From Myxococcales bacterium (GTDB lineage: Bacteria > Myxococcota_A > Polyangia > Haliangiales > Haliangiaceae), in the NCBI GenBank assembly GCA_016706545.1, contig JADJJK010000031.1:1-21649 (forward strand): a stretch of 21,649 nucleotides of DNA, written 5' to 3'. Shown piece after piece: positions 4,194 to 17,185 of this stretch. A program made the position numbers and the translations under genes. The first letter of the stretch is position 1, and the number at the start of each line of letters is the position of its first letter. Under the pieces are notes generated by a model that worked only from the letters and a program-made list of their open reading frames with translations, was not told the DNA's origin and did not search any database.

Positions 4194-7100
4194 TCAGGGC
4201 ACGAGCTTCTGCAGAAACGCCAGGCCATCGGCGTTGCTGTCGAGCAACCCGATCACCAGCTTGGCGGTGGCGCGCGCCATCGGTCCGCCGCCGTCGGCTT
4301 CCTTCTTGAGCGCCTCGACGGCCGCCTTGGCTCCGGGCGGCGTGCGCGCGAGCACGATGAACGCCGCCGCCACCACCAGCCGGCGCATGGCGTTCTGCTC
4401 GGCGCCACCGAGCAAGGCGCGCAGGCGGTCGGGGGCCTGGGTCTTGGCGTAGGCGGCGGCCAGCGACGGCAACATGGCTACCCGCACGTCGTGCGAGGGG
4501 TCAAGGAGCAGCGGCTCGAGGAGCTGCTCGGTCAGCGCGGCGTCGCGATCGACGAGGCCGATGGCCGCCGCCGCCGCTTGCGCGCGCTCGCGCTCGGTGC
4601 GGGACGCCAGCGCTCGTCCAAGCCGGGTCGCCACCGCCTCCTTCGCGGCCAGCCTGGCCACCGTGGTCAGCGCGAGCTGGCTGATGTCAGGATCGGTGTC
4701 CCGCACCGTGACCGCGAGCGCCTTCTCGATGCTCTGGACCGGGAGCTTGTCGCGGTGGAGCGTGAGCTGCTCGAGCGCCGCGCGGCGGACCTCGGCTTCT
4801 GGATCGGCCAGCGCGGTCGCGAGCGTGGCCTCGGCGGCGATGCCCGCGCTCAGCGAGGCCTCGACCGTGGCCACGCGCACCTCGGCGACCTTGTCGGCCA
4901 TGCCGCGCGTCATCAGCTCCACCACCCCGAGCTGCTTGGCCGCGCGCAAGAGCGCGAGCTTCTCGCCCTCGTCGCCGCGACCGAAGCCGCGCAGCAGCGC
5001 CGGCGCCGCCGCCTCGCTGGCCGCGTTGCCGAACGAGCCGAGGCCGCGGATCGCGACCATGCGGACCTCTCGGACCGCGTCGTCGGCCAGCGCCACCAGC
5101 GCGTCTGCGGCGGACTTGTTGCCGTTCTTGGCGGCGTCGGAGAGGATGCGCGCGGCCGTGGTGCGGATGCCTGCGTCTGGATCTCGCACCAGGCGCAGCG
5201 CGATGGCCGATCCGTTCTTGCCGGGCTCGGGGCCCTCCGCCACGCACTCGATGGCGATGCGACGCACCTCCACGGACGGGTCGTCAGTGGCCCGCACCAG
5301 CGAGCGCCGCGCGTCCTGCGAGCCGCCGCCGATGGCGTTGCACAGGCCCTGGACGCCGAGCGGGTGCAGGGCCGGATCATCGGTCGCGCGCGCGGCGGCC
5401 TCGAGGAAGTTGAGCACGTTGGCCGGACGCTTGCGCGCCAGCTTGGCGTAGATGCGGACGGCCTCTCTCCGCGGGCGTCCCTTCTGCTTCCAGAGCTGCG
5501 CGATGCCGTCCACCGCGACCGCGGTGGACGCGCCCTCTTCGGCGCCGGCGGCGAGCCCAAAGCCCGCGCCCACCGCGACGTCGAAGCGCTCGTTCTTGAC
5601 CATCTTGATGAGCTGCTCTTGCGCCGGTCGTCCGATGCGACCGTAGGCGGTCGCCGCGGCGGCGCGGACGTCCGGAGCGTCGTCACGCAGCAAGGTCTCG
5701 AGCGCGGGCCGCGCGACGTCCGCCTTGATCAGCACCAGGAGCCCCCAGGCCTTGGCGGCGGCGACCTTGAGCGGGCGGCTCGTCTTCTTGTCGCTGGTCA
5801 GCGCGCCAAGCGCGGGCACCGCGCGGTCCACCGCCACCCTGGCGTAGAGGGGCAGGGCGGCGGCGCGGAGGGCCTCCGACTTGTTGTCGAAGGCATCCTG
5901 GGCGATCGTCACCAGGTCGATGGCGGGCGGCAGCGGATCTAGCTCGGTGAGCATCTCCAGCGCGAAGATCCGCGACTCGTTGGGGGCGTCCTTGGCCAGC
6001 ACCGCGAGCGCCTCCACGGTGGCCGCGCGCGCGGCCGCCAGCGAGGAGCGGAGCATGGCGCGGGCCGCGTCTCGTTGCCCAGCCGAGGTGTTGGGCTCGG
6101 TCAGGATCGCGACCGCGGCCGACGGCGGCGGCCGATCTTCTGTGCCGGTGTCCACGATGGCCAGCGCCTGGAGCTCGCTGCGCGCCTTGGCGTCGATGTC
6201 GCCGGCGAGCGCGCCAGCGATGAGGCGGTTGGCTCGCTCCTCCGGCATGGTGCGCAGCTCGGTGAGCGCGCTCTTGCGCAGCTCGGGGTTGCCCGAGGCC
6301 AGCGCCTTGGTGAGCGCCTCGGTGTAGGGCTCCGGGCGGCGCCGCGCCGCCGCCGAGGCCACCGCCACCGCGGCGCGCTGCACCGCGGGGGAGGGCGAGG
6401 CGATGGCCCCTTCGATGAGCGCGGTCTCCGCGCGCCCGCCGCGGGCGATGGGGCGCAGGAGGTCCAGCATCTCGACGACCTCTTCAGGCTCCTTGGCCAG
6501 CTTCTTGAGCTTGTCGAGGGCTTCCTCGGAGCCGGTCGCGCCATAGGCGACCGCGGCGGCGAGGCTCGGCGCCATGACGGAGGCGACCCGGGGCTCCATG
6601 CGTCCGGCGTCGTCGCCGAGATCGTGGTTCTCGATGCGCTTCCACGCCTCGGGGGCGACCATGCTGCGGGTCAACCCGGTCTCGGCGACGATGTCGCCGA
6701 AGCCGAGCCAGTGGAACATGGACAGGCCGGCGCGGCCGTCGCGCAGCACCACCTGATCGCCGCCGGCGCGCGTCTGGACGTCGAAGTACACACGGCCGCT
6801 CATCGCGATGTACGCGATGAGCAGCAGCACCAGCGGGAGCGCGGCGATGGCGATGGCGATGGCGCCGTAGTAGCGCCGCGAGCGCGCGACCAGCGCCTTC
6901 TCCTGCGGGGTGACCGGCGCGATGCCCTCGCGCACGAGCGTGTAGAGCTCGACGAGCCGCAGCCGCGAGGCGGTGTCGGCCTTGGAGCCGAGCAGCTCGT
7001 GGGCGCGCCTGGCCGCGGCGCGGGTGGGCGCGGTCAGCTCGCGCAGCCTGGACACCAGGATCTCATGGCGCAGGCTCCACATGGTGCCGGCGATGTCCCA

Positions 7101-16800: not shown

Positions 16801-17185
16801 GTGCAGCGAGCTGAGCGCCATCCTGCGCGAGCTGTTCGCCAGCGAAGGCGACCGCTCGGGCGTGGCCGCGGAGCTGGTGCGCGTGGGAGGGGCCTCGGGG
16901 ACCAAGGTCCTCGACAAGTACGCCGGCCGGATGCGTGAGCTGGACGTCGAGGGGTGGATGGATGGCATGCTGGCCGGCGCCAAGCGCAGCGGTCTTTTGG
17001 CCTGCGACGAGTTCGAGGCCGCGATCTGGATGATCGCGCGCCTCTCCGGGGAGCGCCTCGCCGGGCACGACGACACCGCGGCGCTCGGTGCGGTGCTAGG
17101 CGGCGCGGACCTGGTACGGTACTACCTGAGCGATGACTACCAACGCCTGCGACAGAGCTTGACGGCCGCGAAGGCGGAGTCATGA
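10847..17185 (+). CDS. Giant (about 2110-aa) tetratricopeptide (TPR) repeat protein with a non-TPR C-terminal domain of about 280 aa
   Basis: The continuous frame has strong G/C third-position bias. There are dozens of TPR-like units (e.g. [92 protein letters not shown]). The ATG at 10847 is the first start after the repeat-nest spacer, although the long ORF formally opens at 10292 inside non-coding-looking repeats. The C-terminal roughly 280 aa ([10 protein letters not shown]...LTAAKAES) is not TPR. Confidence 0.75.
   Translation: [2112 protein letters not shown]

Follow-up and report, generated by a model that had tools for sequence, protein, structure and literature searches.

A predicted transmembrane STAND NTPase with HEAT repeats kept beside a divergent ABC transporter pair in Kofleriaceae and Haliangiales

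STAND and NLR-type NTPases are known as soluble intracellular sensors that act in immunity, cell death and transcription. Here we describe a gene on a 21,649-nucleotide stretch of a Myxococcales bacterium genome (contig JADJJK010000031.1, positions 1 to 21,649; this whole stretch is called the window below) that encodes a STAND NTPase with one predicted transmembrane (TM) helix followed by a solenoid of HEAT repeats, and that stands divergently beside the ATPase and permease genes of an ABC transporter. The module formed by the STAND and ABC genes is well supported, while membership of a giant TPR protein gene farther downstream, itself followed by a gene for a STAS-like zinc-ribbon protein, is moderately supported. 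We read the locus as a conserved, vertically inherited housekeeping cell-envelope cluster of Kofleriaceae/Haliangiales in which a transmembrane STAND switch is coupled to an ABC-2 transporter, rather than as an immune sensor, and we give this reading an even chance of being correct. A preliminary description of the window, made from the sequence alone, had proposed the NTPase, the ABC pair and the TPR protein as one candidate module, and all of its genes were found where it had placed them. Because the window has a G+C content of ~72%, most of the listed open reading frames (ORFs) are spurious, and the real frames were picked by a scan of G+C at third codon positions (GC3).

The STAND gene lies in an ORF of 1330 codons (4194..8186, minus strand) with a coding-type GC3 of 0.91. 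Pfam nSTAND1 (PF20703) matches aa 42-229 of the 1330-aa ORF with 54.7 bits against a cut-off of 27.1, spanning model positions 1-190 of 379 here and positions 1-342 in the relative P0203, and the C-terminal part is matched by HEAT_2 in four stretches as well as by HEAT and Cnd1, in agreement with the STAND-like P-loop NTPase and HEAT repeats first proposed. Full-length cluster representatives number more than 120, at 52-77% identity, and alignment columns of 32 sequences are on average 72% identical. Invariant among these 32 homologues are the Walker residues G53, E54, G56, G58, K59, T60, S61, D130 and D133, R343 and H344 in the later helical part, the juxtamembrane residues G445, G446, R452, G454, R455, G457 and W463, and two cysteines, C919 and C951, in the HEAT part; the invariant LRHE motif that holds R343 and H344 is only suggestive of an MHD-like histidine. 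Per-column conservation is 0.72-0.80 in the HEAT part compared to 0.79 in the NTPase. Only ~25 aa stand ahead of the NTPase core, with no N-terminal effector domain.

A scan of the first 500 aa against 1.84 billion representatives returned 1462 relatives. In distant relatives at 27-34% identity the alignment continues through query residues ~490-498, and 33 of 34 such proteins are nSTAND1 members, 24 with HEAT repeats and nine with Pkinase and WD40 domains. The layout of NTPase, TM helix and repeats (HEAT or Pkinase/WD40) is the rule among the nearest 150 representative relatives. A PDB sequence search with the NTPase part gave generic P-loop matches to RFC1 only, and an exact look-up of the 1330-aa product found nothing because the public gene call has another start. 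As a separate observation, another nSTAND1-TM-HEAT clade, 29-31% identical, stands head-to-head with a TPR protein of ~390-405 aa and no ABC genes (L086, 8507-9724; L087, 8701-9861).

The nSTAND1 family (novel STAND NTPase 1) was defined in conflict and counter-invader systems (Kaur, Iyer, Burroughs and Aravind 2021, eLife; PMC8195603). The window protein resembles its members in a core above the cut-off, intact Walker A and B motifs and an NTPase followed by superstructure repeats (HEAT here, WD40 in relatives), but differs from them in having no effector or effector-associated domain, in the TM helix between the STAND module and the repeats, and in a highly conserved repeat domain within a housekeeping-like context fixed beside an ABC transporter. 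Pkinase-nSTAND1-TM-WD40 proteins and the 'transmembrane STAND ATPases' reported to be sensors in fusions with defence proteases (bioRxiv 10.1101/2025.11.14.688446) share with it the order of NTPase, ~400 aa, TM helix and juxtamembrane module at 27-32% identity, whereas their outputs are kinases or proteases, their sensors are WD40 repeats and their contexts are not known to include an ABC pair. The suggestion that this architecture belongs to no described family is therefore only partly right, as the STAND family has been catalogued computationally and the NTPase-TM-repeat layout is common, while the literature searched contains no description of this clade, of its topology or of the ABC partner fixed beside it.

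Conservation of the gene neighbourhood was followed in two scans. The first, with a permease profile and one genome per GTDB species, gave 77 loci, all from Kofleriaceae/Haliangiales-type metagenome-assembled genomes (MAGs) except one labelled Acidobacteriota, and counts were taken from loci with enough flank. The ATPase lies within 0.8 kb of the permease at 54 of 68 loci and the STAND gene upstream of the permease at 51 of 55 species loci; a giant TPR gene follows within 10 kb at 43 of 48, directly next to the permease at 28 of these 48. The second, an independent STAND-centred scan of metagenome contigs, gave 80 loci, and a divergent ABC operon stands beside the STAND gene at every locus with at least 4.5 kb upstream (38/38), directly adjacent at 12 and with DUF4139-like genes between at 26; the permease was found at 31 of 34 and a giant TPR gene within 10 kb at ~20 of 26.

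Between the STAND start and the ATPase there are three classes of distance (~0.1 kb in the window, ~1.2-1.7 kb and ~2.7 kb), and the extra space is taken up, at the head of the ABC operon, by one or two genes, paralogues of each other, whose DUF4139-like products are secreted or lipoproteins. These DUF4139/DUF4140-like genes, found in L083 (7213-9932), L084 (8598-9920) and ~60 other loci (most Kofleriaceae), encode signal or lipoprotein signal sequences, and their matches to PF13598 (DUF4139), which span almost the entire model, scored 29.7, 21.0 and 20.6 bits where the cut-off is 31.8. The window lineage, L002, L006, L007, L040, L042, L045 and L081 have none of them, and the DUF4139 literature yielded nothing functional.

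The STAND-ABC pairing is also kept where its surroundings are not. Downstream of the STAND gene lies a SnoaL-like gene in the lineage of the window and a QueF gene in many others, and other flanks differ as well while the pairing holds (SnoaL, superoxide dismutase and EVE in the window lineage compared to QueF). Local inversions, of the ABC pair in L003 and of only the permease in L025, have left the genes together. Four deep lineages, 31-41% identical to the window over the NTPase region (tblastn) and 27-32% identical to each other, have a divergent ATPase across a spacer of 88 bp (L085), 44 bp (L088), 50 bp (L089) or 104 bp (L090). By hhalign the permease was matched with a probability of 98.9 (E 2e-17) in L085, 90.9 (partial) in L088 and 100 (E 1e-44) in L090; the L089 partner, of 390 aa and with no Pfam match, was not compared. 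L090 retains all five genes, with a TPR protein of 2022 aa whose C-terminal domain is 41% identical to that of the window (probability 100), while the other three have no giant TPR gene within 10 kb. These four lineages mark the STAND, ATPase and permease genes as a deep core to which the TPR and STAS genes are frequent but looser additions. The proposed module thus stands for the STAND and ABC genes; for the TPR gene, which together with the STAS gene follows in about 80-90% of loci, it stands in most Kofleriaceae loci and one deep lineage and fails in the other three, and unrelated genes intervene in about one third of loci.

It is also conceivable that the STAND gene, the ABC pair and the TPR/STAS genes are functionally independent and are neighbours by descent only, in a slowly rearranging region of one family. 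The narrow taxonomic origin of the 77 species loci would fit this explanation, as would QueF, likewise often kept beside the STAND gene, the AraC, Uma2, PAS kinase and response regulator genes found between permease and TPR in some loci, and the three deep lineages with no TPR gene nearby. It accounts poorly, however, for the STAND-ABC adjacency counted in both scans, for a pairing that persists at 31-41% NTPase-region identity after other flanks have changed and that outlasts the inversions seen in L003 and L025, and for L090, which keeps all five genes though the N-terminal region of its STAND protein is only about a third identical. We therefore consider coincidental inheritance unlikely.

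The preliminary description had also predicted a single TM helix with the ATPase and the HEAT repeats on opposite sides of the membrane, and the analysis agrees with it on both points. One segment (revised aa 410-432) is strongly hydrophobic, with a Kyte-Doolittle value of 2.82; the next best reaches 1.35, under the TM range, no other segment exceeds 1.6 and no second TM helix was found in the protein. The helix lies ~400 aa past the P-loop in nearly every relative longer than 900 aa, and although some relatives add two N-terminal TM helices, or a TM hairpin after the kinase domain, the number of spans before the repeats stays odd, which keeps the NTPase inside and the repeats outside. Over 200 relatives, lysine plus arginine within 15 aa of the helix average 3.46 on the N side compared to 1.77 on the C side, with the N side richer in 85.5%, and the span free of charges is 23.9 aa long on average (range 21-32), too short for a helical hairpin. 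These figures support a topology with the NTPase in the cytoplasm and the HEAT repeats outside (N-in/C-out), which would put the juxtamembrane segment together with the HEAT solenoid in the periplasm.

Both halves would instead be cytoplasmic if the hydrophobic segment were a re-entrant or monotopic anchor, making the protein a membrane-tethered HEAT scaffold that partners the cytoplasmic TPR giant. HEAT repeats are rare outside the cytoplasm, an invariant proline (P421) lies midway in the segment, and a cytoplasmic location is predicted for the TPR protein, for the STAS domain and for the conserved loops of the permease, all of which would suit such a scaffold. Against it are the shortness of the mean span for a helical hairpin, the clear positive-inside asymmetry, the odd span number retained by relatives with extra TM helices and the secretion of the co-operonic DUF4139-like proteins, and we hold this arrangement to be improbable.

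Given the family to which the NTPase belongs, a role in conflict has to be weighed. A conflict or immune STAND sensor would use its HEAT part to detect an invader or toxin outside the cytoplasm and its NTPase to oligomerise and trigger a response. Such a role would be in line with the nSTAND1 membership, with the definition of nSTAND1 in counter-invader systems (PMC8195603), with the transmembrane STAND ATPases fused to defence proteases and with relatives that carry Pkinase and WD40 domains. It is opposed by the short N-terminus with no effector domain, by a sensor part conserved like the NTPase, by a chromosomal position that is conserved throughout the sampled species loci, and by the lack of defence genes among the called neighbours in 12 annotated loci. 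PADLOC gave no match for the STAND, permease, TPR or STAS proteins, and for the ABC ATPase generic P-loop matches only. In addition, many non-defence STAND clades are interspersed among the defence clades (PMC13581612). The missing effector, the conservation of the HEAT part, the PADLOC result and the housekeeping neighbours together underlie the housekeeping reading, and we regard an immune function as decidedly unlikely.

In the housekeeping reading, the STAND protein would be a single-pass inner-membrane switch with its nucleotide switch in the cytoplasm and its juxtamembrane and HEAT part of ~870 aa in the periplasm. It would couple the ABC transporter of the same membrane to the state of its periplasmic HEAT scaffold, perhaps by touching the ATPase or the conserved loops on the cytoplasmic side of the permease, much as MalK holds MalT, and the transporter would export or move an envelope component only once the periplasmic side is ready. 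In most lineages the TPR/pseudo-peptidase protein and the tail-anchored STAS-zinc-ribbon protein may serve as cytoplasmic adaptors. Physical contact, signalling direction and substrate are what we infer here. The nearest functional precedent would be MalT-MalK of E. coli, in which the ATPase of the maltose ABC transporter keeps a STAND regulator inactive. A STAND NTPase is functionally tied to an ABC transporter in that system too, but MalT is soluble, comes from another STAND clade and has a DNA-binding domain of the LuxR type, and MalFGK2 is built on another membrane fold and works as an importer. The sequences are related no further than at superfamily level.

Several points weigh against the housekeeping reading. 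The topology is drawn from hydrophobicity and charge bias alone, and MalT-MalK is no more than an analogy. The window lineage has none of the DUF4139-like genes, and the TPR and STAS genes are parted from the ABC genes by unrelated genes in about one third of loci, with none within 10 kb in L085, L088 and L089. Since the nSTAND1-TM-HEAT clades of L086 and L087 have no ABC neighbour, the ABC link is clade-specific, and since all loci come from one order-level group and mostly from MAGs, shared descent contributes to the synteny. Finally, the family itself was defined in conflict systems (PMC8195603). The features of the window to which these arguments refer are collected in Table 1.

Table 1 Features of the window, with coordinates, strand and the evidence for each
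Feature	Coordinates	Strand	Evidence or remark
nSTAND1 NTPase-TM-HEAT gene	4194..8096	-	1300 aa from probable start GTG 8096; ORF open to ATG 8186 = 1330 aa
P-loop NTPase core with Walker motifs	7500..8063	-	Pfam nSTAND1, invariant Walker residues
Predicted single TM helix of STAND protein	6801..6869	-	Kyte-Doolittle, charge bias
Conserved juxtamembrane segment after TM helix, predicted periplasmic	6603..6800	-	Distant-relative matches, invariant residues
HEAT solenoid, ~800 aa, predicted periplasmic	4197..6599	-	HEAT_2 (4 stretches), HEAT, Cnd1
Promoter-like site of STAND gene	8103..8132	-	ACGACA, 18 nt, TATAGT
13-bp tandem repeat, 3.2 copies, divergent intergenic region	8180..8221	.	TRF score 70
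ABC transporter ATPase, 244 aa	8283..9017	+	ABC_tran E 1e-28
Divergent permease, 415 aa, with ABC-2 (type V exporter) fold	9014..10261	+	Fold model
Tandem-repeat-rich spacer	10262..10846	.	TRF, low GC3
Giant TPR protein, ~2112 aa	10847..17185	+	16 TPR-type Pfam families
M48-like zincin-fold domain, TPR C-terminus	16310..17185	+	Fold model; HExxH-less
STAS-like domain, Cys4 zinc ribbon, Pro-rich linker and C-terminal TM helix, 320 aa	17592..18554	+	After TPR gene

Homologues of the STAND protein (1291-1322 aa) begin with M-A-(V/I)-A-T-(Y/H)-P-G, which in the window corresponds to GTG 8096, probably the true start. The sigma-70-like site listed in Table 1, of which one was found compared to 0.1 expected from shuffles, ends 6 nt ahead of this GTG, and TATAGT with 6-7 nt and GTG is also present in L002, L006, L040 and L045 (TATAGT-like in L007), which suggests that the STAND mRNA may be leaderless. 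With this start the divergent spacer would be ~186 bp and not 96 bp as described previously, and the 13-bp direct repeat, which is indeed present, would occupy 42 bp of the spacer rather than fill it. Its unit reads GGCGCATCGGTC(A/G/T) and its copies lie 49-89 nt upstream of the -35 box. The three ATGs borne by the repeat, being 13 bp apart, cover all three frames. Compared to window positions 8097-8186, the corresponding stretch of L001 (904-1000), a 98.9%-identical strain, has an 11-bp insertion just downstream of these ATGs; as a result the public gene call of L001 starts in another repeat copy (1338 compared to 1330 aa), indicating that this stretch is evidently not constrained as protein.

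The repeat is identical in L001 and missing from the same spacer in seven other relatives, and L081 has an unrelated 7-bp x 5 repeat in its place. As TRF lists 66 tandem-repeat rows across the 21.6 kb of the window, a three-copy 13-mer is unexceptional, and it is probably a strain-level microsatellite and not regulatory, contrary to the repeat-controlled regulation proposed in the preliminary description. A role as a dispersed operator was likewise rejected, as there are no further copies elsewhere in the window and none in the relatives. A rival explanation, in which the STAND protein activates transcription of the divergent ABC operon in the manner of MalT by way of these repeats, is very improbable, since the divergent layout, the shared spacer and the three direct repeats between the starts are outweighed by the absence of a Pfam-detected DNA-binding domain, the membrane anchor and the confinement of the repeats to two nearly identical strains although the gene pair is conserved.

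The ABC pair itself is real. The ATPase has drrA (1.9e-46) and GldA (1.6e-43) as its best NCBIfam matches, with DrrA, GldA, NodI and CcmA nearest and all under their equivalog cut-offs, and the motifs read are Walker A GPNGAGKST, signature LSYGMRQR, Walker B LVLLDE and H-loop STH. The permease start, GTG 9014, overlaps the ATPase stop by 4 bp (GTGA). The permease has no Pfam, NCBIfam or PADLOC match, and a profile of 26 sequences found no match among PDB sequences. An AlphaFold2 model built on 35 homologues (pLDDT 91.7, pTM 0.85) has ~10 helices, and by fold comparison this model matches the membrane domains of type V exporters, so that the 415-aa protein is confirmed, by fold only, as a divergent permease of the ABC-2/type V fold. 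Its family motifs are YWRxDAALLARLPI, LRDVSALDRQRLA, KDARLxRRRYP and PPIELPRL. With helices counted from the basic N-terminus, these would lie in cytoplasmic loops, the outside loops being very short, and YWRxDAALLARLPI, following helix 2, would fall at the site of the coupling helix of type V exporters.

Compared to known type V exporters (CcmAB, NosDFY, Wzm-Wzt, KpsMT, PmtCD and ABCG2), the window pair is similar in its DrrA/GldA/NodI/CcmA-type ATPase and is encoded by two overlapping genes, and most relatives resemble NosDFY or GldAFG in having periplasmic accessory proteins in the operon. The permease differs from those exporters in its ~10 helices in place of six, in having no sequence match to any ABC-2 family and in the family-specific motifs of loops placed on the cytoplasmic side.

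The giant TPR protein most likely starts near 10847, consistent with the ~2100 aa previously given for it, and its homologues have 2022-2174 aa. The conserved N-terminus has no signal peptide or TM helix. The stretch ahead of it (10262-10846) holds 12/24-bp repeats (~10 and ~5 copies) and 9-bp repeats (~6 copies) that in one frame read HRRTHRRV... and SSSANSS..., has a GC3 of only 0.60 in the TPR frame, and is probably non-coding; alternatively, it may be a low-complexity N-terminal extension of the TPR gene. The gap between permease and TPR gene is 96 bp as called in L002, in L006 the TPR match starts ~150 bp after the permease, and low-complexity stretches occur at the TPR N-terminus in L002 and L007.

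The last ~280 aa of the TPR protein had been called a unique domain, and are 65% identical per column in 26 species. A PDB profile search with this domain found nothing beyond TPR repeats, and its model (pLDDT 81.7, pTM 0.83) was built on a shallow nine-sequence alignment because the homologue search gave only eight mostly fragmentary proteins. As judged from the model, the domain is a catalytically dead M48-like zincin fold, or pseudo-peptidase, and is therefore not unique in fold; it is probably a binding module. No HExxH motif is present in the 2112-aa protein and no histidine is invariant in the domain across the 26 species, in contrast to M48 peptidases with TPR (BepA/YfgC), HtpX and minigluzincins, from which the protein also differs in having the TPR part first, in its predicted cytoplasmic location and in its length of ~2100 aa. 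A link to Agl-Glt gliding (a GltI/GltJ-like TPR giant with a zinc-ribbon membrane protein) was considered and dropped, its sole support being a weak TPR-level match to GltE.

The STAS-zinc-ribbon gene always follows the TPR gene (42 loci, including those in which the pair is inverted), and its product is 71% identical to the L090 copy. Matches to the STAS-like domain are weak (Pfam STAS E 0.0074, 16.5 bits compared to a cut-off of 22.6; NCBIfam ant_ant_sig 22.1 bits compared to 53.45), and a PDB sequence search with this part gave nothing useful. Just past the gene, a PAS protein (18683-19234, minus strand) and a HAMP-SpoIIE (PP2C) phosphatase (19634-21334, plus strand) resemble a partner-switching set; PAS and SpoIIE genes also follow in L006, L007, L040 and L045, and PAS alone in L050, L053 and L057. 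The N-terminal STAS-like domain, with these two genes following in the window and its nearest relatives, is reminiscent of STAS partner switching (SpoIIAA/RsbV with PP2C), while the sub-cut-off STAS matches, the added Cys4 zinc ribbon, Pro-rich linker and C-terminal TM anchor, and the lack of an anti-sigma kinase in the window set the protein apart.

Directly upstream of the STAS gene, the non-coding element at 17470-17591 is conserved above its flanking genes and has related copies in ~40 loci, its ~120 nt being near-invariant among the window, L002, L006 and L007. Its core, TGTAAT-N7-(A/C)TAC-N5-(G/A)TTACG, was compared in 35 species, with GTAA, AC and TTAC invariant, and is followed by a small hairpin, CCGCC-GTTACGT-GGCGG, that overlaps a GGAGG ribosome-binding site. 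Modest support for the hairpin comes from its pairing (68% compared to 63% shuffled, 3 of 500) and covariation (0.243 compared to 0.179), and the element could alternatively be an extended -10 promoter or an operator. An ORF at 17182..17595 (plus strand) that overlaps the TPR stop by 4 bp was rejected as a coupled gene, as its G+C is 62% and it has no coding-type GC3 frame; its last 27 aa look conserved because of the DNA-level element. At the other end of the window, a stretch of lower G+C (63%) at ~2400-3020 (plus strand) holds a gene labelled Fe/Mn superoxide dismutase in the annotation of L001, and beside it lies an EVE-domain gene (1629-2264, minus strand) with an 18-bp x 6.3 tandem repeat at its 3' end (1668-1781). 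Rfam at the gathering threshold had no match within the window.

A more far-reaching proposal, which we put forward only tentatively and regard as doubtful, is that the five to seven products form one undescribed myxobacterial trans-envelope machine. In it the STAND protein, as a transmembrane receptor or actuator (NLR-like, with its repeats outside), would be physically coupled to the type V ABC transporter, the periplasmic DUF4139-like lipoproteins, the cytoplasmic TPR/pseudo-M48 scaffold and the membrane-anchored STAS-zinc-ribbon protein, and the machine would control the export or assembly of an envelope component.

What distinguishes this STAND clade is a repeat domain predicted to lie outside the cytoplasm and conserved in a housekeeping-like manner, in a gene locked beside an ABC transporter. 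The analysis also assigns a fold and a probable function to a permease family that had no annotation, gives a modelled fold for the conserved end of the 2100-aa TPR protein and defines a set of genes open to genetic work in relatives that can be cultured, such as Kofleria or Haliangium. If the housekeeping reading is true, a STAND switch would be used in these bacteria for trans-membrane signalling in envelope biology, which would extend the idea of STAND-ABC coupling known from MalT-MalK.

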